Shown here: positions 6,433 to 49,011 of the stretch, piece by piece
Layout of the letters: each line of letters begins with the position of its first letter
Numbering within the stretch: position 1 is the first letter of the stretch
Source of the DNA: Candidatus Doudnabacteria bacterium
Lineage (GTDB): Bacteria > Patescibacteriota > Doudnabacteria > UBA920 > VMFF01
Direction: 5' to 3'
DNA length: 64,000 nucleotides
Assembly (NCBI GenBank): GCA_963840645.1
Contig: CAWIZL010000002.1
Span: 209,663-273,662 of the forward strand
Notes under the pieces: model-generated
What the model saw: only the letters and a program-made list of their open reading frames with translations
The model's database searches: none
Told to the model about the DNA's origin: nothing
Translations under genes and position numbers: made by a program

Positions 6433-7541
6433 CTCAACAGACTTGAATTTGAACGAGAAAAGCGTAGGTCAAAAGGTTAGCAAAAACCGTAAGATTCCCT
6501 AAAGATTCTTAGCAAAACGCACATGTTTACTTCCACATTAACACCAGAAAAGAGCGGCAGCTTCTAGCCACACATTTTACTGTGTACCTAGCAGCCGCTA
6601 CTGAGCGGTTTTTTGTTGGTTCAGGAACCTTTCAAAATTGTTGTCACATACTTACTGCCCAGGCCAGTATTTACTCGGGTCGAATTAGGGCAGTAGCTAC
6701 GTGATCGCAATACAGCACGACAATAGGCAGTCAACCAGGCGAGCGACACACTGCACATTAACAATTCAATAGTGGCAATCTAGCAGTTGAACGATCAACC
6801 CAACTGTATAGATATGTAAATTCATTGTTAGTGAACAAAGTCCAAATCACCATAAGATTCTAGTGTACAGAAAGCATTCGTCTAACGAGATTGCAGTTGT
6901 AAATTGCTAGTCAAGTTAAGAAGAATTAAAACAGAGAAGGGTATGCGGTGGATGCCTTGGCAATGTCAGCCGATGAAAGACGTGACAGCCTGCGATAAGC
7001 TCCGGGGAGGTGGCAGTAACCTATGATCCGAAGATTTCTGAATGGGGAAACCCACGCACGTGAAGCGTGCGTGCCAATGCACAGAGGTGTGCGTTGTGCG
7101 GGAACCGTGTGAAGTGAAACATCTCAGTAACACCAGGAAAATAAATCAATCTGTCGCAAGACAGGCGAGATTCCCTAAGTAGTGGCGAGCGAACGGGGAA
7201 AAGTAAAGTTATTTATATGATTGGATCCTATAGTTGGGTTCAGTCGATATAGGTAATCTTTCAGCCTAAACTATCCATGTGTTTGTTGTACGCAATACAA
7301 TTATTAAAGCTTACAGGCGTTGCATGGGTAGTGTAACAAGAGGGGTTGTGCGCTGCTGTAGAAGCGCGGAGGTACATTCAAGTGTTTAGCAGAACACGCC
7401 TGGAAAGGCGGACCAAAGAGGGTGATAGTCCCGTATCGCGAAAAACCATGCAATATTCCTAACTTTTTCTTAAGTACAACCAGACACGAGAAATCTGGTT
7501 GGAAATCGGGTCGACTAAGATCCAAGGCTAAATACTCATAT

Positions 7542-7582
<41 letters not shown>

Positions 7583-8264
7583 CACCCCGGAAGGGGAATG
7601 AAATAGTATCTGAAACCGTATACTTACAAGGAGTGGAAGCCCGTAGCAGTGTTTACACTGCTGGGTAACCGCGTGCCTATTGAAGAATGATCCAACGAGT
7701 TAATCTTATACGTGCTTATTAAGCCTTATCAAAGGCGAAATCGTAGTGAAAGCGAGGATGAATAGTCCGCATTAAGAGAATAGTTGATAGTTAGTAGTTA
7801 ATAGCTGGGGATTGTGCGCAGCAGACCGTTGCAATGCCGTCTATTAACTACTAACTATTAGCTATTACTCTTAAATGTCGCATGAGTTAGACCCGAAACC
7901 CAGTGAGCTACTCATGGCCAGGATGAACGTTATGTAAAAGTAACGGGAGGTCCGAACCCACTATTGCTCGCAAAAATAGGGGATGAACTGTGAGTAGGGG
8001 AGAAATTCCAATCGAACTGGGTGATAGCTGGTTCTCCTCGAAATAGCTTTAGGGCTAGCGTCAGATGTTCCCTTGAGAGGTAGAGCACTGAATGGAAACC
8101 TGCTGCGCAAGCGGTAGTCTCCAACCAAACTCCGAATTCTAAAGGTCAAGAGTCTGGCAGTCAGTCCGTGAGGTCTAAGCTTCACGCGACAAATGGAGAA
8201 GAATCCACACCATCGTCTAAGGCCCCCAAATCCTAGCTATAGTGCAAAGGATGTGGGATTGCCC

Positions 8265-8301
<37 letters not shown>

Positions 8302-8997
8302 TAAAGAAAGCGTAACAGCTCACTGGTCAAGCGATCCTGCGCCGACAATATATAGGGGCTAAGCTAGGTGCCGAAGACATGGATTGGCTCGACTTCATTG
8401 CGAGTCAGTGGTAGAGGAGTGTTCTGTACAGCGCTGAAGCGGTATGCGTAAGCGGCCGTGGACGTGCACAAGCAAGAATGTTGGAATAAGTAATATATAT
8501 AGAGGTGAGAATCCTCTTCGCCGAATATCCAAGGTTTCCAGGGCAACGATCGTCGTCCCTGGGTTAGTCGATCCTAAGAGTGGGCCCCAAGGGGTCCACC
8601 CGATGGAAAATACGGTTGATATTCCATAACCACTTTACAATTATCTAAGGCGGAACGCATCATGATAGCGCTGGCGTCATCTGACTATTGGCGTTGTTGT
8701 CTTGTAGGATGAGTTCCAGGCAAATCCGGAGCTCCTATGTTTTGTATATCTACCTCGCAAGAGATGAGATGCAAAACTGTAAATCTCGAAGAGTGCGAAG
8801 AAATCCTGGCAACGGGGATTGGCGTGAATCAAGGTGTCAAGAAAAACGTCGTAGTCACGTTATATGGTGACCGTACCGTAAACCGACACAGGTGGATGGG
8901 GAGAGAATCCCAAGGCGTCCGGATCAATGTTCGTTAAGGAACTCGGCAAAATAAGCGGTCGTACCTTCGGTATATGCCTGACCTTTCATATGCTGGG

Positions 8998-9365
8998 TTG
9001 TGGGTTAAATTAAATGTGAGTGTGCGACTTCATAGCTACAACGGTGGAGGTTCCTCCACTGGGTAAAATCAGGAGGTCGTAGGTTCGATCCCTACTAGTC
9101 GCGCCAAATTGAAGTTGGAAGAATTCACAAGTCTGTACGTTCTCTGTCAATCCTCCGCGGCGGATGAGCGAAAGATTTCGGATTCTGGGAAACGTTGTGT
9201 CGATGCACCCGTCGTTCACTTGCAACAAGACTGAACAGAGATGCTGTCATGCACTGCTTCGTTTATCTACAGAGAGTGGTGTAGCCGCTCATAGCGGCAT
9301 ACCACTCTCAACCACTCGGTCGGACTGGCTGTGATTCTCCCGAGTATAGAACCATCCATCCACTA
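8998..9365 (+). other. About 370-nt expansion segment or intervening sequence inserted at the tip of 23S helix 63
   Basis: It is closed by CATATGCTGGG (8987-8997) pairing with CCCAGCATAT (9366-9375). It lies between the conserved GGAACTCGGCAAA and CGACTGTTTACC blocks. It contains GNRA-capped hairpins and a tRNA-like module. Confidence 0.6.
9024..9106 (+). other. tRNA-like module (acceptor stem, degenerate D-arm, canonical T-arm, encoded CCA) embedded in the 23S expansion; not a canonical tRNA
   Basis: GCGACTT (9024-9030) pairs 6/7 with TAGTCGC (9096-9102), followed by G-CCA. The T-arm is GTAGG-TTCGATC-CCTAC (9079-9095). A D-arm remnant reads TAGCTACAACGGTGGAGG. There is no 5-bp/7-nt anticodon arm; instead there is a CCTCC/GGAGG stem with a 14-nt loop, or alternatively a GTGGAGG/CCTCCAC hairpin. 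Confidence 0.5.
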
Positions 9366-9540
9366 CCCAGCATATTAAAGGCCCGCAGCGAAAGATCTCT
9401 CCCGACTGTTTACCAAAAACTTAGGTCCGTGCTAAAGCGCAAGCTGATGTATACGGGCTGATGCCTGGCCAGTGTCAGAAGGTTAAACCGGTGTGGCGCA
9501 AGCCTCGGCTCAAGCCCTGATGAACGCCGGCAGTAACTAT

Positions 9541-10280
9541 GAACAATTGTAGTTATAAAATTTGGCTATTTGCGGGGATCTCTGTGCACACATGTTTCGT
9601 CATGAGGTGCTTAAAGCTGGTAGTACTCGTCTGAAATATGACAGTAAAAATCTATCAGATACAGACAATCCGCAGGGAAGATTCACTGAAAAGATCCATA
9701 CAAGGAGAATAATATATGGATCAAAGTTGGCTCAAAGAGATTCCGACAGAAAAAGGTTACTACTTTGCAGGTTTCGTAGATGGAGAAGGTAGCTTCAACG
9801 TTTCATTACGTAAGCGATCTGATCATGCAGTACACTGGCAAATAATTCTAACCTTCAATGTCTCCCAGCGCGATCTTGTCGTTTTGTCTCAAATGAAAAA
9901 ATATTTGGGATGCGGCAGGTTATTCGCTAGGAAAGATGGTGTGAACTGTTACATAGTTCAAAACCCATCTGCAATCCAGGAAAGGATTATTCCTTTCTTC
10001 AAGCGGTTTCCTTTTTTATCCGCTAATAAAAAAAAGAACTTCTCGATCTTTGTCCAAATTGCAGATTTGGTCAGCAGCAAGCAGCATCTTACAGAAGATG
10101 GCCTGCGAATCGTTCATTTAAGAGAAAAGCTAAATGAAGGTAAAGGTAGGAAGCGCAAGTACAACTTATCAGATTATTTAGGATCTGACAGCGAAAACCC
10201 TCAACGACTACACGCCGAACGCCAAGAAATTGGTGATGATATAGTCTGATCTGCACGGAGACGTGCAGCAAACACACATG
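9541..10280 (+). mobile_element. Group I intron in 23S rRNA at the E. coli-equivalent site 1917, carrying a LAGLIDADG homing-endonuclease ORF
   Basis: The 5' exon ends ..AACTAT (U at -1). The internal guide GTAGTT (9549-9554) pairs with AACTAT. Core elements are P ATTTGCGGGG (about 9568), Q AATCCGCAGG (about 9667), R TCAACGACTACACG (10201) and S GATATAGTC (about 10238). The intron ends ..CACATG (terminal G). Removing it restores GTAACTAT|AACTGTCC. Confidence 0.8.
9716..10249 (+). CDS. LAGLIDADG homing endonuclease (single-motif, I-CreI-like homodimer type), intron-encoded
   Basis: Contains KGYYFAGFVDGEGSFNVSL (LAGLIDADG motif) and ..IIPFFKRFPFLSANKKKNF. The C-terminal codons run into the intron R/S core. 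Confidence 0.9.
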   Translation: MDQSWLKEIPTEKGYYFAGFVDGEGSFNVSLRKRSDHAVHWQIILTFNVSQRDLVVLSQMKKYLGCGRLFARKDGVNCYIVQNPSAIQERIIPFFKRFPFLSANKKKNFSIFVQIADLVSSKQHLTEDGLRIVHLREKLNEGKGRKRKYNLSDYLGSDSENPQRLHAERQEIGDDIV

Positions 10281-10294
10281 AACTGTCCTATGGT

Positions 10295-10604
10295 GGAAGG
10301 AATTCCCTTTGCCCTCGCAAGAGAGGCAAAGGTTTAGCCGCCTTAGTAAAATTTGGCCATTTGCTGGAAACCCTGAGTATGTCATGGTACTCGTTGCTGT
10401 TGATTTAACAGCAACAGTGAAAATCCATGAACGCAGACAATCAGCAGGAAAGACTGGCTAAGAAATTAGCCAGAATCCTCAACGACTATACGCCAAACGC
10501 TAATAAATGATTAGTGATGATATAGTCTAAGCTGCATGGCGACATGCAGAGTACGACAGAAATGATCGTACCTTGACTTGACAAAAGTCATGTAATATGA
10601 CCTC
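10295..10604 (+). mobile_element. Second, ORF-less group I intron, homologous to the first, at the E. coli-equivalent site 1931; the 3' boundary is uncertain
   Basis: Core elements are P ATTTGCTGG (about 10359), Q AATCAGCAGG (about 10437), R TCAACGACTATACG (about 10479) and S GATATAGTC (about 10519). The internal guide GCCTTAG (10340-10346) is complementary to CTAAGGT (the exon reads CTATGGT). TTTAGC (10333-10338) pairs with the 3' exon GCGAAA. The nucleotide before the AGCGAAATTCC exon is C, not the canonical G. Confidence 0.65.
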
Positions 10605-11203
10605 AGCGAAATTCCTTGTCGCGTAAGTTGCGACCCGCACGAATGGCATAACGAGTAGAGGACTGTCTTGACGAACAACCCGATGAATTTACAGTGGCGG
10701 TAAAGATGCCGTCTGCCCGCAACAAGACGGAAAGACCCTATGAAGCTTTACTATAGCGTGTCATTGGAATAAGGTTTTGGCTGTTTAGAATAGGTGGGAG
10801 ACTTTGAAGTGCTGCTCTGGCAGTAACTGAGTCGCAAGGTGAAATACCACCCTGTCGAAATTTTGTTTCTAACCTTGGTTTAACCTGCCAGGGAACAGTG
10901 GCTCGTGGGTAGTTTAACTGGGGCGGTTGCCTCCTAAATGGTAACGGAGGCGTTTATTAAGGTAGGCTAAACGCGGATGGAAATCGCGTTGATAGTGCAA
11001 ACGCATAAGCCTGCTTGACTGCAAGGCCAGCGAGCCGCGCAGGTACGAAAGTAGAAGTTAGTGATCCGATGCGTTAGAGTGGAATACGCAAAGCCCAACG
11101 GATAAAAGTTACTCTAGGGATAACAGGCTGATCCGTCTCCAAGAGTCCACATCGACGACCGGGTTTGGCACCTCGATGTCGGCTCATCACGTCCTGGGGG
11201 TGA

Positions 11204-11240
<37 letters not shown>

Positions 11241-11802
11241 TGGTACGCGAGCTGGGTTCAAAACGTCGTGAGACAGTTTGGTCCTTATCTGTTGTGGGTG
11301 TACGAAACTTGAGTGGGCACATCTCTAGTACGAGAGGACCAGATGTATGGACCTCTGGTGTACCCGTTGTCCTGTCAAGGGCATAGCGGGGTAGCTAGGC
11401 TCAGTTCAGATAAACGCTGAAGGCATATAAGCGTGAAGCTGTCCACAAAACTAGGTTTCGTTGTGCAGCGATGCACGATAGATTCGCAGAAGACTACTGC
11501 GCACATAGGTTGCAGGTGTAAGCACAGCAATGTGTTCAGCCGAGCAATACTAATCAATCGAAAGTTTTAATTCTTTTTGACTAGCAATTTGCGCTTGTAA
11601 TACAGCGTGATTGTTGGCCGAAGAATTTCTGGGCATACTAGAATACGTCTTTGTTGCATAACAATTTACATTGTTTTCGCCGAAAGGTGAGAACATGCCA
11701 CTATGGTTTGATACAATTCGAAGGTGAATGCCTTCTGAACTTTCAGAGAAACCGCATCCAAAATCCGAATAATTTTGGCTAGCGCACGTTTCCCTGCAGG
11801 TT

Positions 11803-21160: not shown

Positions 21161-22826
21161 TTACTCCTTAACCATGTGGTCCAGCGACCACTGTAAATTC
21201 GATCCAACCTTTTTGCCTGGGTTGAAGATGTTGAGCGGGTCAAATGCAGCCTTCACCTCTTCGAACAGGCCGTAGACCTCTGCCCCGTACATTTGCTTGA
21301 GGAACGGGCTGCGGATGAGGCCGTCGTTGTGCTCGGCAGTTATAGATCCGTGGTAGGCGAGCACGAGGTCGTACACTTTGTTGGAGAGCTCTGTAATAAT
21401 TTCGCGCGTCTTTGGATTTTTGAAATCCATGAGCGGAATAATGTGGAAGTTGCCGTCGCCAACGTGACCTGCGATTGTGTACACAATATCGTACTGCGCA
21501 AGGATCTTATTCAAAGCTGGCAGGAACTCTGGCAGGTGCTCTGGCCGCACAATGATGTCATCAATGAAGGGAGCTGTGCGCGTGCCGTGCATGTGCTTGC
21601 GCAGCAGGCTGAAGCTCTCGCGCCTGATTGTCCAGTACTTCTGTGAATCTTTCTGGTCTGCAATGCGGGTTGGCAGCTTGAAGCGCGCAACAGCGTCTTT
21701 GGCAGCCTGTGTGCGTTTGGCAACCTCAGCAGCATCTTTGCCACGGAACTCTGCCATCAGGATGAGCTTCGGGAAGCCGCCAGTGAGCACCATGCCAACC
21801 TCTGGCAAGAACTGCAGGCCAAGGCTGAAGATGTTCGTTGGCGCCATTATCTTTATGATCTCTGGCAGAAACTTCATGGCCAGCGAAAGCGTCTTGTCAT
21901 CGTACGACTCAAAGCTCTCTGGCTTGAACTGCAGCACAACGTTTACCAGTTCTGCCAGGTGCGTGAGGTCATTTCATGAACACAATGAGCATCTGAGACT
22001 CATTGTCAGGTTCTATGAGCCGGAACTTTATGCGGTCAATAATGCCGAGCGTACCCTGCGACCCAACGAGCAGCTTGTTCATGTTGAACGTGCCAGCAGT
22101 GCGGTCGTACACGTTCCAGAGGTAGTAGCCAGCAGAGTTCTTTGAAACCCTTGGCTTTGCAGACTGAAGCACGTCGTAGTTTTTATCTATGATTCCGTAA
22201 ATTTTTCTGTACAGGTCGCCCTCAAAGCCTTCTTCTCTTAACTTGGTGTCGAGCTGGTTGCGGTCGAGCTGCGTGAAAGTGTGCTCTTTGCCGTCAGCCA
22301 GAACCATTTTCAATTCCTCCACGTAGTTTTCGATCTTCCCGTACGTAAGAGTTTTTTCGCCAGCGCCATTGTTGGCCACTTGGCCGCCAACGGCGCAGAT
22401 CTCGCGCGAAGCTGGGTACGGCGGCAGCAGCAGATTTTTTGCCAAGGTGAGCTTCTCAAAGTCGCGGTAGAAAACGCCTGGTTCAACAACGCCGTAGCCA
22501 ACGCTGGGGTCAGTGTTCTTTACCTCGAGTATGTGGTTGAAGTACTTCAGGAAGTCTAAGATGATGGACGTGTTGAGCGATCCGCCGCTCATGCACGTGC
22601 CAGCTGCACGGGCAGTAATAGAAATGGTGGGGTCAGTTTTCTTGGCTTCGCTCACGAACTGCACAATTTTTTCTATGTCAGCAACTGTCTTCGGGCTGAC
22701 AATGACCTCTGGCTTTATCTCAAACACGCTCGCATCGTGGCTGTAAGTGGTGAGCGTTGCATCATCGAACGTAATGTCGCCGTCGAGGTGCAGGGCTTGG
22801 AGCTTCTCAATTGTTGGTGTTGGCAT
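21161..22826 (-). CDS. FAD-linked oxidase (GlcD/D-lactate dehydrogenase-like, PCMH FAD-binding domain), with one frameshift at about 21970 (ORF pieces 21969..22826 and 21161..21937)
   Basis: The N-terminus VSPKTVADIEKIVQFVSE...ITARAAGTCMSGGS matches FAD_binding_4. The C-terminus reads GHVGDGNFHIIP...GSITAEHNDGLIR. The junction reads ..MLIVFMK / DLTHLAELVNVVLQFKPESF. Confidence 0.85.
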
Positions 22827-36295: not shown

Positions 36296-37785
36296 ATGGC
36301 AGCTGAAGGCGAGTCAAACCTAAAGTGGTGGGTGCTGCTCACCGTCATCATTGGCACGTTCTTGGGCAGGCTTGACCAGACAGTGGTGAACCTTGCCCTG
36401 CCGAAAATTATTGACGACTTTGGCATCAGCGTCTCAGCTGCTGGCTGGATTGCCACTGCGTACATTCTGGCGAACGCAATTTTCGTGCCAATTTGGGGCA
36501 AGCTCGGCGACACCATTGGCCGCAAGAAAGTGTACATTATTGGGTTCGTGGTTTTTATAATTGGCTCGGCGCTCGCGGGGCTCTCGTGGAACCTGACGCT
36601 CCATGATCGTGTTCCGCGTCATCCAGTCTATTGCGGGCAGCGCAGACTACCCAACGGCAATGGCTATTTTAGCGGTCACGTTCACGGGAACGAAGGAGCG
36701 TGCGCAGGCGCTGGGCATTTGGTCGTCATCGTTTGCGGCTGCCGCTGTATTTGGCCGCTCATCGGCTGGCCTGCTTGATAGACAACTTTGGGTGGCGCTC
36801 AGTGTTTCTGGTGAACATTCCAGTTGGCATAGTCGGGTTGTTCATGGCAATCACGTTCGTACACGAGTCTATGGCTGAAAAACCGACCACGCACTTTGAC
36901 TGGTGGGGTGCGATCACCCTCGGCATTGCGCTCTCGGCACTCGTGCTCGTGCTCGACCAGGGCACGACGTGGGGTTGGACAGCCATGTACTCTGTGCTGT
37001 GCTACGTTGCCACAGTTGCATTCACGTGGATTTTTATATCAATAGAGCACCGGTCGCCAGAGCCAATTGTGGATCTGCGCTTCTTCAAGATTCCAGCGTT
37101 CGTCAACACGCTCTGGAACAACTTCATTGTGTTCATGGGCTTGATGGGCAGCATCTTCCTCATCCCAATTTTTGCTCAGACGTTCATGGGGTACACGGCA
37201 ACGCAGAGCGGGTACCTATTCATTCCGCTGGCTGTAGCGCTCATGGCAGCAGCGCCAATTGGCGGCTCGCTCATTGGGCGCGTGCGGCCTGGGTACGTCA
37301 TTGCCGCGAGCACCTTGGTGGCAGGCATTGGCATTTACATGTTCTCGTTTTTAATTGACCCGCGCTCTGGTCCAATGGCCATCATCATCCCGTTGTCTGT
37401 TATGGCGTTCGGCTTAGGCTTTGGCATGGCGCAGCGCACCAACATTGTGGCGCAGGTTGTTGAGCAGGATGAAATCGGTGTCGCGTCCTCAATTTTGGCG
37501 CTCGTGCGAAATATTTCGGGCGCGTTCGGCATTGCGATTTTCGCGACAATTCTAAACAACATTACGAACGCGAACGTCTTGAACCTCGGCCGCGGCAGCG
37601 TGCTGCAGAGCACAAACCCATCAGATTACCAGAAGTTCATAGCGCTCATTATTCTGAAGGCGCAGGTGTCCGCGTACAGCGAGGTGTTCCTGGTAGCCGC
37701 AGTGCTCGTGTTCATTGGTGCCGTGGCAGCGCTGTGGATCCGTGTCGGCCACCAGAACAGCGACGTGCACGTTATGGTAGAATAA
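36296..37785 (+). CDS. MFS transporter, DHA2 (EmrB/QacA-like, 14-TM) family, with two frameshifts (about 36600 and 36750; ORF pieces 36296..36778, 36603..36878, 36700..37785)
   Basis: LDQTVVNLALPKI, GKLGDTIGRKKVYIIG, then MIVFRVIQSIAGSADYPTAMAIL in a second frame and LIDNFGWRSVFLVNIPVG in a third. Confidence 0.85.
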
Positions 37786-44616: not shown

Positions 44617-44674
44617 GGGGGATTGGAAAGCTGTAGGCCCACAGGCCACGCAATTCAATCCCCGTTATTTTTTA
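44617..44674 (+). terminator. Intrinsic terminator (long hairpin plus T-run); its T-run overlaps the stop region of the convergent gene
   Basis: GGGGATTG...CAATCCCC followed by GTTATTTTTT. Confidence 0.55.
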
Positions 44675-45993
44675 TTCACAGTTTTTTCAAACAGGTTCTT
44701 CAGCTTTCGCTCTGGATCGTACTTCTGCTTCAAGCTGTCGTACGTTGGCTTGTCGTAGATTTCCCAAAATTCATCTTCAGTGTAGTACGCGTCTGAGTAG
44801 AGCCCTTTTCTACCTTCCAGTTCAGTAACCTTTGCCTCAACGAGTGAGTTGTAGTAGCCAGCTTGCTTGTCCGTTGGCACAGATCCCCAGAATCCAAAGT
44901 TCACGTAAATCTTTTTTGGGTCAAGAGGGTAGAGGCTGAATTTGGCTTCTGCATCGTACGTGCCAATGGGGCAGATCCACACAGGCCTAATGCCAATTTT
45001 TTCAAAGAAAAATTTCTCGAACGCTGGCGCGTTTTCGATTGGAATATCAACATCTTGAATGACCCACTCTTCACGCCCGGTGACGAGAGGCAGCAGCTTC
45101 TGCGTAATGAACGACCTCTGGCTCCAGCGCATGAGCTTTGTGTAGAAGAGCGAGTTCAGGCGTTTTTTCCCGAGCAAGCGGCGCAGCAGTGGATTCTGCG
45201 CGCCAATGACGTTTGAGCACCAGAACCAGTCTGTGTCCCAGCGCCAAATGAAATCAGCTGCAGAGAGGTAGTCAGTTTTCTTTTCACGGATCGATTTGTA
45301 GTACACGTTCATGTACGTGTAGTCGCTCGTGAACGGCGCGCTGTCTGTGAACGTTCCAGTGGTGATGTACATTTCACCTGGGCCAAAAATCGTGCCGTCT
45401 ACAAAGGCTACTGCTGCGCCAGAGGCGCACGTGGCGGCCAGAGCTTTGAAGTACGACTCTGAATCGCTGTAGTGCTCGTGCTCTACTTTCACAAACTTTT
45501 TCACGGGAATAACTTTCACCCGCAGCTTCAGTGCGTACCCAAAGGTTCCGTACGAGTTTGGGAAACCGTAGAATAAATCTGAGTTTTTGGTTTTGCTGCA
45601 CGTGACGATTTGGCCAGTTGCGAGCAGGATTTCCATCTGTGTTACTGTCTCGTGCACCAAGCCGTACCGAAACGACGTAGCCTCAATGCCAATGCCGCTC
45701 ACAGCTCCGCCAACGGTGATTGTTTTCAGCTGCGGTACAACAGCAGGCATGGCGCCGTAGCGCAAGGTTTCGGCTACAAAGTCTTCGTAGGTTGCCATGC
45801 CCTCAACTTCAGCCCAACCTCCAGCTACGTTTACCTCCAGCACCTTGTTGAAGTCGCGAACGTCTAACGAGTTTCCGTTTGCCCCATCGCGGCTGCGGAA
45901 AAGGTTTGATGTTTTTTTGGCCAGGCGAACACTGCCGGTGCGCTTGATCTGCTCTGCCAGGCGCTGCGCTTTTGCCTCGTAGTTGCTGTCCAT
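44665..45993 (-). CDS. FAD-binding oxidoreductase of the DWF1/DHCR24-like family (BfaA-like)
   Basis: LEVNVAGGWAEVEGMATYEDFVAETLRYGAMPAVVPQLKTITVGGAVSGIGIEATSFRYGLVHETV..MEILLATGQIV.CS...NSDLFYGFPNSYGTFGYALKL closely parallels the DHCR24/DIMINUTO FAD domain. Confidence 0.8.
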   Translation of the reverse strand: MDSNYEAKAQRLAEQIKRTGSVRLAKKTSNLFRSRDGANGNSLDVRDFNKVLEVNVAGGWAEVEGMATYEDFVAETLRYGAMPAVVPQLKTITVGGAVSGIGIEATSFRYGLVHETVTQMEILLATGQIVTCSKTKNSDLFYGFPNSYGTFGYALKLRVKVIPVKKFVKVEHEHYSDSESYFKALAATCASGAAVAFVDGTIFGPGEMYITTGTFTDSAPFTSDYTYMNVYYKSIREKKTDYLSAADFIWRWDTDWFWCSNVIGAQNPLLRRLLGKKRLNSLFYTKLMRWSQRSFITQKLLPLVTGREEWVIQDVDIPIENAPAFEKFFFEKIGIRPVWICPIGTYDAEAKFSLYPLDPKKIYVNFGFWGSVPTDKQAGYYNSLVEAKVTELEGRKGLYSDAYYTEDEFWEIYDKPTYDSLKQKYDPERKLKNLFEKTVNKK

Positions 45994-46002
45994 TCGTAAA
46001 AA

Positions 46003-47120
46003 TTACCGCACAGACCTGTAACCGCCAGGCACACCTTTTTTGGACAGCGTGAACTGCCAGAGCTGGTTTCTCCTCGCGCGGAACGCTCCGGCGCACGAGA
46101 GCAGGTAGTAGCTCCACATTCTGTAGAACCTATCGCCGTACTCTGCCTTCAGGCTCGGCCAGTTGTCGACAAAGTTTTTGTGCCACGCCATGAGGGTCTT
46201 GTCGTAGTCTGCTCCAAAGTTGTGCAGGTCTTCGAGGATGAACAATTTTTCCATTGGGCCACGAGCTGCGCGAGCGCTGGGAGAACGCCGTTGGGAAAGA
46301 TGTACTTGTCTGTCCACGGGTCTGGCACTGGCAAGGACTTGTGGTACCCAATGGTGTGCAGCAGGAACATGCCGTCATTGGTGAGCCTGTCGTGGGCCAC
46401 CTTGAACAGCGAAGCGTAGTTCTTAGGCCCACGTGCTCAGCGAGGCCAATTGAAACAACGCGGTCAAACGTACCCTCAGCGTCGCGGTAGTCGCGAACCT
46501 GGAAGTCGAGCGGCAGGCCAGCGCACGATTCTTTGGCAAACTTCATCTGCTCTTTTGAAAGGTTCACGCCAACGCCGGTGACCCCGTACTTTTCAGCTGC
46601 GTACTTCAAGAAGCTCCCAAAGCCGCAGCCAAGGTCTAAAACTTTCATGCCAGGCTTGAGGCCAACCTTCCTGCAGACTAAGTCAAACTTTGCATCTTCA
46701 GCATCGTCTAAGTTCTGGGCGTCTCTCCAGTACGCGCACGTGTACGACATTGTGTGGCCGAGCATGAGCGCGTACAGGTTGTTGCCAATGTCGTAGTGCT
46801 TCTCTGCAACCTCTGCTGCCTTCGACTTCTTCTGGCCATTGAAGATTTGAGCCTTCAAGAAGTGAACGGCGAGTTTCCAGTCTTTCAGCTCGTTCTCTAA
46901 GTTGGCCTTCAGAACCCTGTTGAAGAACTCATCCAGCTCTGCGCAGTCCCACCACCCGTCCATGTACGATTCGCCCAAGCCTAGGTACGGCTGTCTCAGG
47001 ATGCGGGCGTAGAGCTTCTTCATTGTGTACCTGTATGTCCCACGGCGCGGTTCCGTTAATGGTGATACCAGCTTTTGCCGCTAAGCTGACCACCAGCTCT
47101 TTGTCTTTTTTCATTGCCAA
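46003..47120 (-). CDS. Cyclopropane-fatty-acyl-phospholipid synthase family SAM-dependent methyltransferase (BfaB/Cfa-like), with three frameshifts (about 47015, 46430, 46260)
   Basis: Pieces 46929..47120, 46130..47023, 46149..46400 and 46003..46317 join as ..APWDIQVHNEE/LYARILRQPYLGLGESYMDGWWDC...HYDIGNNLY...VLDLGCGFGSF...SIGLAEHVG/..HDRLTNDGMFLLHTIG...DPWTDKYIFPNG/..LEDLHNFGADYDKTLMAWHKNF...YYLLSCAGAFRAR. Confidence 0.8.
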
Positions 47121-47177
47121 ATTATAGCATATTTAACATATTCATTTACAGCACAAGGGAGACACCTCTTCTTGTGC

Positions 47178-48522: not shown

Positions 48523-49011
48523 CTACCGCGCGGCTGCCAGAAACGTGTCGAGCTTCGTGAGCTGCTGCTCAAAGCCGTACTTCATGCCCTCTACTGCCAT
48601 TTTAGCCCCTGGCCCAATCTTGCTGACTGTGGCCTTGAGGTTCAGCTTTGTTTTGCCGCCTTCTTCTGTGAGGACGAGCTCTGTCACCTGGTCAATCTGG
48701 GTTGCCCCATCATCGTTCTGCCCCTCAGTCCAAGCCTTTGCGGTGTACGAGAGCTTTGAGTTTGGCTCAACAACTGTGAACTCTGCCTGCATTGGCCACT
48801 TCGTGCCCTTGTACGGCCCATTGCCTCGCCAGCTTCCATGACAATGTAGAACTTGCCGCCAACGCGCAGGTCAACTTCGCACTCAGGAATGGTTACGTCG
48901 TTTGGCACCCCACCACTGCTTGAGCACTTCTGGGTCTGTCCACGCTTTCCAAATTGTTGCTGCTGGTGCATCGTACGTTCTCTCGAACGTCACTTCTTTG
49001 ACTGGTTCCAT
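48523..49011 (-). CDS. SRPBCC/AHSA1 (activator of Hsp90 ATPase-like, START-fold) family protein, with two frameshifts
   Basis: MEPVKEVTFERTYDAPAATIWKAWTDPEVLKQWWG / PNDVTIPECEVDLRVGGKFYIVMEAGEAMG / PYKGTKWPMQAEFTVVEPNSKLSYT... The start abuts the ArsR stop. Confidence 0.7.

Follow-up and report, generated by a model that had tools for sequence, protein, structure and literature searches.

The DNA analyzed here is a stretch of 64,000 nucleotides (nt) from a contig of Candidatus Doudnabacteria—hereafter the window, to which all coordinates refer—and carries on its minus strand a pair of adjacent genes predicted to act on membrane phospholipids. The upstream gene encodes a phospholipid acyl-chain methyltransferase (MT) of the Cfa/TmpB type that depends on S-adenosylmethionine (SAM), and the downstream gene encodes a BfaA-type oxidoreductase that binds flavin adenine dinucleotide (FAD) (Table 1). 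The stop codon of the MT (TAA, 46005–46003) and the start codon of the reductase (ATG, 45993–45991) are 9 nt apart, which is consistent with co-transcription; in related loci, the intergenic spacer ranges from −17 to ~220 nt. The original prediction had placed an FAD oxidoreductase 9 nt 3′ of a Cfa-family MT on the same strand, and the list of open reading frames (ORFs) and the sequence bear this out. The MT is broken into four ORF pieces in three frames, which match the CMAS family model PF02353 in succession at model positions 2–143, 153–208, and 208–273; consecutive parts of the NCBIfam model NF008686 are likewise matched. The span first assigned to the MT, 46003–47120, is right at its 3′ end, but translation likely begins with the ATG at 47114 (MKKDKE..., compared with MSKEKE... 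in relatives) rather than with the TTG at 47120.

The reductase belongs to the BfaA type. It is 43–48% identical over its full length to the BfaA proteins of T. curvata, M. smegmatis, R. opacus, M. tuberculosis (Rv3719), and C. glyciniphilum, with ~430–460 residues aligned and E values of 1e-122 to 1e-152; the enzymes of T. curvata and M. smegmatis have been characterized by experiment, and the reference sequences of BfaA, BfaB, and TmpB are those in the supplement of PMC7791843. The identity to the assayed BfaA of T. curvata is 48%. That enzyme turns 10-methylene into 10-methyl acyl chains using the reduced nicotinamide cofactor NADPH, not NADH, and is the only BfaA for which NADPH-dependent 10-methylene reduction has been demonstrated (PMC7791843). 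The sole Pfam match is FAD_binding_4 (PF01565, 58 bits). The motifs LAKxTSNLFR, VVPQLKTITxGGA, FPNSYGT, and WRWDTDWFWCS are invariant in the alignment of the reductase family, and the protein combines the two features that define the BfaA type at the sequence level: an N-terminal FAD_binding_4 domain and a family-specific C-terminal domain with the WRWDTDWFWC motif. A confident AlphaFold model based on 42 homologues features the two-domain VAO/PCMH fold, with a predicted local distance difference test score of 85 and a predicted template modeling score of 0.86. A fold search of the PDB with this model returned only generic VAO/PCMH relatives, the nearest being cytokinin dehydrogenases and DprE1. 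The earlier label of a DHCR24/DWF1-like FAD oxidoreductase is supported by BLASTP against a human DHCR24 sequence (27% identity, 421 amino acids [aa], E 8e-44), on which the link to DHCR24 rests because the PDB has no BfaA or DHCR24 structure. The family is large: its homologues form more than 8000 clusters when grouped at 90% identity, and when grouped at 50% identity, 590 clusters reach E ≤ 1e-30. NCBIfam has no model specific to the BfaA-type reductase. Five family proteins of ~900 aa (P0276, P0300, P0302, P0311, and P0314) consist of two tandem BfaA-like FAD_binding_4 modules and have no MT domain; the ~900-aa matches of the representative search were rejected as MT–reductase fusions because they are such tandem double reductase domains.

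The MT, once its reading frame is corrected, is 54–56% identical to TmpB of Desulfobacter and Desulfobacula over ~360 aa and shares 52% identity with full-length E. coli Cfa, but is only 35–38% identical to BfaB and to the Marinobacter-type TmpB, and there in the catalytic domain only. The alignment to E. coli Cfa (6BQC, E 3e-127) spans both domains, including the N-terminal lipid-binding domain. The SAM fold is conserved, and the bicarbonate ligands C139, E239, H266, I268, and Y317 are all kept; these ligands are also conserved in BfaB and TmpB and hence are not discriminating (PMC7791843). On the equivalog model NF008686, which is named for Cfa and has a cut-off of 400, the corrected MT scores 565.5 bits, and TmpB of D. 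postgatei and D. toluolica score 593–594. These two TmpB proteins make 10-methylene-16:0: expression of the tmpBA operons of D. postgatei and D. toluolica in E. coli converted 31.5% and 11.8% of palmitoleate, respectively (PMC7791843). In the neighbor-joining tree, BfaB forms a clade separate from the window MT—which with 370 aa is also shorter than BfaB with ~420–440 aa—and E. coli Cfa is nested among the Desulfobacter TmpB proteins and the reductase-linked MTs, in the clade of the window MT. Because of this nesting, phylogeny cannot resolve the product type of the MT. The original prediction of a BfaA/BfaB-like pair thus holds for the reductase, which is homologous to BfaA over its full length; it does not hold for the MT, which falls into the Cfa/TmpB clade, beside E. 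coli Cfa but also beside TmpB.

A possible signature of the product type lies next to the catalytic cysteine. Eight positions that are at least 90% conserved in reductase-linked Cfa/TmpB-like MTs differ from E. coli Cfa, including Ser138, which is replaced by Thr beside the catalytic Cys139. PDB alignments place Ser here in four solved cyclopropane synthases, namely CmaA1 and the enzymes of E. coli, L. acidophilus, and Aquifex, and Thr in UmaA. Thr precedes the catalytic Cys in the window MT, in every BfaB and TmpB reference, and in all 67 of the 67 motif-matching reductase-linked MTs. The residue at this position is a candidate determinant of cyclopropane versus methylene product.

The pairing of a BfaA-type reductase with a Cfa-family MT, as originally pointed out, is a conserved cassette. 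A survey restricted to a single genome for each GTDB species yielded 80 loci that carry a BfaA-like gene; a CMAS MT is adjacent in 69 of them and on the same strand in 67, frequently with a 4-nt overlap. The reductase precedes a BfaB-type MT in nine loci, all from actinomycetes. The MT comes first in 41 loci with a Marinobacter-TmpB-like MT (two of them apparent fusions), mostly from Burkholderiales and other Proteobacteria, and in 15 loci with a Cfa/Desulfobacter-TmpB-like MT from the candidate phyla radiation (CPR), Acidobacteria, Nitrospira, Verrucomicrobia, and some Gammaproteobacteria. Two CPR loci have a Cfa/Desulfobacter-TmpB-like MT following the reductase, and in two further loci, from Rhodospirillaceae and Lysobacterales, an MT of either non-BfaB type lies on the opposite strand. 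Across the survey, BfaA-like reductases are thus paired with three MT clades in at least six phyla. The CPR relatives with the order of the window carry an intact MT: L001 (376 aa), L002 (370 aa), L082 and L083 (370 aa), and L084, a Doudnabacteria metagenome-assembled genome (MAG; 371 aa). MT and reductase yield congruent trees that both recover CPR, Nitrospira, and Acidobacteria groups, so that the two genes seem to have been passed on together. Given this conserved cassette, a methylene-then-methyl pathway is the best reading.

Some loci deviate from this pattern. In a gammaproteobacterial subgroup (L004, L008, L010, L012, L035, L060, L061, and L075), no CMAS MT lies within ~3–4 kb of the BfaA-like gene—the downstream flank of L060 being incomplete—and these proteins may have a different partner or substrate. 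A Saccharibacteria MAG (L017:1-3138) has an MT on each side of the reductase, and a Patescibacteria MAG (L025:2617-5125) has the reductase followed by the MT with a 1-nt spacer. Two single ORFs of ~900 aa (L066:2612-5296 and L081:2564-5272) are apparent fusions of a Marinobacter-TmpB-like MT and a BfaA-like reductase, and the junction in L066 is clean (..FLYRP-MTLVEHE..). Both stem from long-read MAGs, in which a single-nucleotide indel at an ATGA overlap could make two genes look like one, and they were not used as evidence.

The broken reading frame of the MT is most likely due to base-calling or assembly errors. Aligned to its closest intact orthologue, that of L082 (81% nucleotide identity), the MT shows exactly three 1-nt indels and no other lesion, in agreement with the three frameshifts reported before. 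No stop codon interrupts the corrected ORF, which shares 81.6% identity with the L082 orthologue; the ratio of nonsynonymous to synonymous substitutions (dN/dS) is 0.16 for the corrected MT and 0.13 for the intact reductase. Indels of 1 nt also occur elsewhere in the window, in ligA, rpoD, G6PD, and a glcD-like gene, as judged by comparison with the syntenic short-read scaffold L085; the AHSA1 and MFS transporter genes are split as well. The indels in ligA and rpoD must be artefacts since a viable cell cannot carry these genes broken. Each of the four mapped deletions, of which two fall in the MT, one in ligA, and one in rpoD, has a GGCC within 3 nt, as do only 3.1% of window positions; the probability of this by chance is ~1e-6. 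This pattern points to a motif-linked base-calling error at GGCC that is possibly related to methylation, and it may reflect a DNA methyltransferase with GGCC specificity in the organism. Related contigs bear long-read-style names; in the relatives L085 and L086, a C5 DNA methylase is encoded beside dnaG. The original prediction had made the function of the MT depend on whether its frameshifts are assembly errors; with the GGCC-adjoining deletions, the ligA and rpoD indels, and the low dN/dS, they are probable artefacts, and the cassette is hence probably functional in the organism.

Table 1. Positions of the gene pair, its indels, and further features of the window
Feature	Position	Strand	Basis or remark
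BfaA-type (DHCR24/DWF1-like) FAD oxidoreductase gene, intact, 442 aa	44665..45993	-	ORF list, Pfam, BfaA identity
Cfa/TmpB-type SAM-dependent phospholipid acyl-chain MT gene, 370 codons after indel correction; predicted methylene synthase	46003..47114	-	
Spacer, 9 nt, MT stop to reductase start	45994..46002	-	Sequence reading
ORF pieces of the MT	46929-47120, 46130-47023, 46149-46400, 46003-46317	-	ORF list
MSYTCAYW with the Thr codon before the catalytic Cys	about 46735-46760	-	
Indel 1, one extra A: GAAGAAGCTC in window, GAAG-AGTTC in L082	47016..47017	-	Nucleotide alignment
Indel 2, one base missing (GAGCACG-TGGGCC)	46431..46432	-	Alignment to L082; adjoins GGCC
Indel 3, one base missing (CAGCTCGT-GGCCCA)	46260..46261	-	Alignment to L082; adjoins GGCC
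1-nt indel in ligA	5721		Comparison with L085
1-nt indel in rpoD	16855		Comparison with L085
1-nt indel in G6PD	21053		Comparison with L085
1-nt indel in glcD-like gene	21971		Comparison with L085
GlcD-like FAD oxidase gene	21161-22826	-	Split over two frames
MFS transporter gene	36296-37785	+	Split over two frames
AHSA1/SRPBCC gene	48523-49011	-	Split over three frames
Candidate extended -10 promoter element TGCTATAAT	47121..47129	-	Inferred from sequence reading
Coiled-coil protein with C39-like peptidase domain, 464 aa	47178-48572	-	
23S ribosomal RNA gene, 4.65 kb	6924-11574		
Inner features of the 23S gene	9716-10249, 10301-10549		

The organism that carries the cassette belongs to the CPR (Patescibacteria), tiny, host-dependent bacteria, most of which are without fatty-acid synthesis. 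This origin is supported by two markers of the window: DnaG, whose best named matches are Candidatus Doudnabacteria at 53–56% identity, and the 23S ribosomal RNA (rRNA) gene, in which a group I intron (RF00028, 74.7 bits) and a 177-aa ORF are embedded. A stretched, intron-bearing 23S gene is typical of CPR rRNA genes. A 5S rRNA gene is also present in the window, and the relative L087 features a LAGLIDADG_1 ORF at the matching place of its 23S gene. The G+C content around the gene pair is 52–54% and equals the window average; the identical reductase protein is recorded on a contig of 407,690 bp. In the neighbor-joining tree, the window reductase groups with those of L082, L001, L002, and L084 at 95% bootstrap, and with that of L082 at 99%. 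Other Patescibacteria, one gammaproteobacterium, and Nitrospira adjoin this CPR clade in weakly supported positions. The actinobacterial BfaA proteins group together and apart from the CPR clade; the tree is rooted on them, so that no bootstrap value can be read for their group.

Taken together, the cassette probably introduces a methyl branch in the middle of unsaturated acyl chains in membrane phospholipids, the indels most likely being artefactual and the cassette probably functional. MT and reductase would be co-transcribed as one cassette. In the first step, as expected from homology, the MT would use SAM to methylate a monounsaturated, phospholipid-bound chain at its cis double bond, and the resulting carbocation would resolve to an exocyclic methylene group, not to a cyclopropane ring—a 10-methylene group if the substrate is a Δ9 chain. 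In the second step, the BfaA-type flavoenzyme would use NADPH to convert this methylene into a methyl group, by analogy with its characterized BfaA homologues. Genes for G6PD and 6PGD are present in the window, and their products could supply this NADPH. The substrates would be acquired lipids if the organism is without fatty-acid synthesis. It is possible, though rather short of probable, that Doudnabacteria-related CPR, probably unable to make fatty acids, re-tailor acquired phospholipids by mid-chain methylation with this new Cfa/TmpB-like plus BfaA-like cassette and that cassettes of this type, and of a second type with a Marinobacter-TmpB-like methylase, are widespread in Nitrospira, Acidobacteria, Burkholderiales, and further groups.

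Several points count against mid-chain methylation by this cassette. The MT is nearly as close to E. coli Cfa, a true cyclopropane synthase, as to TmpB; NF008686 scores the MT and the proven methylene synthases alike, so that homology leaves the product type unsettled; and the Ser/Thr signature is a correlation from few characterized enzymes. The TmpB enzymes nearest to the MT pair naturally with the unrelated TmpA, whereas here a TmpB-like MT would have to work with a BfaA-like reductase. As to the integrity of the MT, three indels in 1.1 kb are denser than the ~1 per 3.5 kb in the window part from 4 to 26 kb, and no GGCC flanks the insertion at indel 1. The points on the product side would suit an ordinary cyclopropane synthase (Cfa) whose neighboring flavoenzyme acts on another substrate or on the cyclopropane product: the MT passes the NF008686 cut-off with 565 bits, shares 52% full-length identity with E. 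coli Cfa including the N-terminal lipid-binding domain, and has E. coli Cfa within its own clade. However, the proven 10-methylene synthases of D. postgatei and D. toluolica score higher still on that model, the partner is 43–48% identical to enzymes whose only shown activity is methylene reduction, the adjacency of MT and reductase is kept in 69 of 80 loci across phyla, and the catalytic Cys follows a Thr rather than a Ser, a trait common to all the methylene formers examined. An ordinary cyclopropane synthase is thus considered unlikely.

The indel density, above the window average, and the missing GGCC at indel 1 would fit a true pseudogene in a decaying cassette of which the reductase ORF alone survives. 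Against such decay stand the indels of the same kind in the essential ligA and rpoD, the location of all mapped deletions next to GGCC (p ~1e-6), the stop-free corrected ORF with its dN/dS of 0.16, and the intact MT in every CPR relative examined, which make a pseudogene quite unlikely. Acquisition from an actinobacterial host, which the original prediction had suggested, or mis-binning of a fragment from a non-CPR genome appears very improbable. BfaA and BfaB were indeed first described from actinomycetes, and cultured Saccharibacteria live on Actinobacteria (PMC10633639). The reductase, however, falls within a CPR clade supported by 95% bootstrap and clearly distant from the actinobacterial BfaA group, for which support cannot be read; the MT shares only 35–38% identity with BfaB and precedes its reductase instead of following it. 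Moreover, the regional G+C content does not depart from the window average, the genes lie inside a contiguous 64-kb stretch with CPR-type markers, and the same cassette occurs on several independent CPR contigs. Transfer from an actinobacterium is hence not supported.

Upstream of the cassette, the putative promoter element TGCTATAAT ends 6 nt ahead of the ATG of the MT and has no −35 hexamer, for which reason it was not called by the consensus promoter scanner; a consensus scan for promoters and terminators gave nothing exceeding the shuffled background. As a promoter, this element would possibly produce a leaderless or near-leaderless MT transcript. The protein encoded directly upstream combines a long coiled coil rich in Gln and Ala with a C39-like peptidase domain at its C terminus and is possibly secreted or located at the cell surface.

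That a lipid-tailoring cassette is conserved in CPR and under purifying selection suggests that these bacteria do more than passively take host lipids. Phospholipid fatty acids (PLFAs) with a 10-methyl branch are in wide use as taxon markers, and a broad genetic distribution of the pathway would weaken this use. If the proposed reading is true, the 10- and 11-methyl biomarkers of ‘actinomycetes’ and ‘Desulfobacter’ would have many more potential sources than assumed, among them Nitrospira, Acidobacteria, and Burkholderiales. Current hidden Markov models give proven methylene synthases the name ‘cyclopropane synthase’, and the Ser/Thr position provides a testable discriminator. Tuberculostearic acid governs membrane compartmentalization in mycobacteria (PMC10127668), which sets a precedent for the physiological importance of a methyl-branched product.

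In the literature, only the bfaAB system of actinomycetes and the tmpBA system of delta- and gammaproteobacteria were found to be described, and they were treated there as separate systems whose reductases are unrelated; no paper was found on the mosaic architecture or on a cassette in CPR, and searches for cfa or BfaA in CPR and for 10- or 11-methyl-16:0 biosynthetic genes outside actinomycetes and Desulfobacter returned nothing relevant. As judged by sequence, the window cassette is a mosaic of the two published pathways, with a TmpB/Cfa-type methylase and a BfaA-type reductase. The enzyme families and the chemistry are already known; the combination and the host are new.

The bfaAB (tms) system of actinomycetes consists of the FAD reductase BfaA and the methyltransferase BfaB and forms the tuberculostearic acid pathway (PMC5660069; PMC7791843). 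It shares with the window the two-gene layout of a CMAS MT and a homologous reductase and the same predicted chemistry, SAM-dependent methylenation followed by NADPH-dependent reduction. It differs in the clade of the MT and in the long N-terminal region of BfaB, which the window MT does not have; in addition, the reductase comes first in nine of nine actinomycete loci, whereas the MT comes first in the window. The hosts are actinomycetes in one case and CPR in the other, and the window proteins stand phylogenetically apart.

The tmpBA system of Desulfobacter and Desulfobacula, the ten-methyl-palmitate pathway, shares with the window the MT-first order, and its TmpB is the 54–56% identical relative of the window MT. 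The partner, however, is of another kind: TmpA is geranylgeranyl-reductase-like, whereas the partner in the window is of the BfaA type with an FAD_binding_4 domain. TmpA and BfaA are unrelated (PMC7791843).

E. coli Cfa shares with the window MT the two-domain architecture, the bicarbonate ligands, and a score above the NF008686 cut-off. It is encoded by a stand-alone gene without a reductase partner and closes a cyclopropane ring, whereas the window MT is reductase-linked.

The sterol side-chain reductases DHCR24 and plant DWF1 (DIMINUTO) feature full-length homology to the window reductase. Plant DWF1 converts 24-methylene to 24-methyl sterols by reducing a C=C bond after SAM-dependent methylation and is, thus, analogous to the BfaA step. 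The substrate of DHCR24 and DWF1 is a sterol, whereas that predicted for the window reductase is a phospholipid acyl chain, and the N-terminal membrane anchor of the eukaryotic enzymes is absent from the window reductase.

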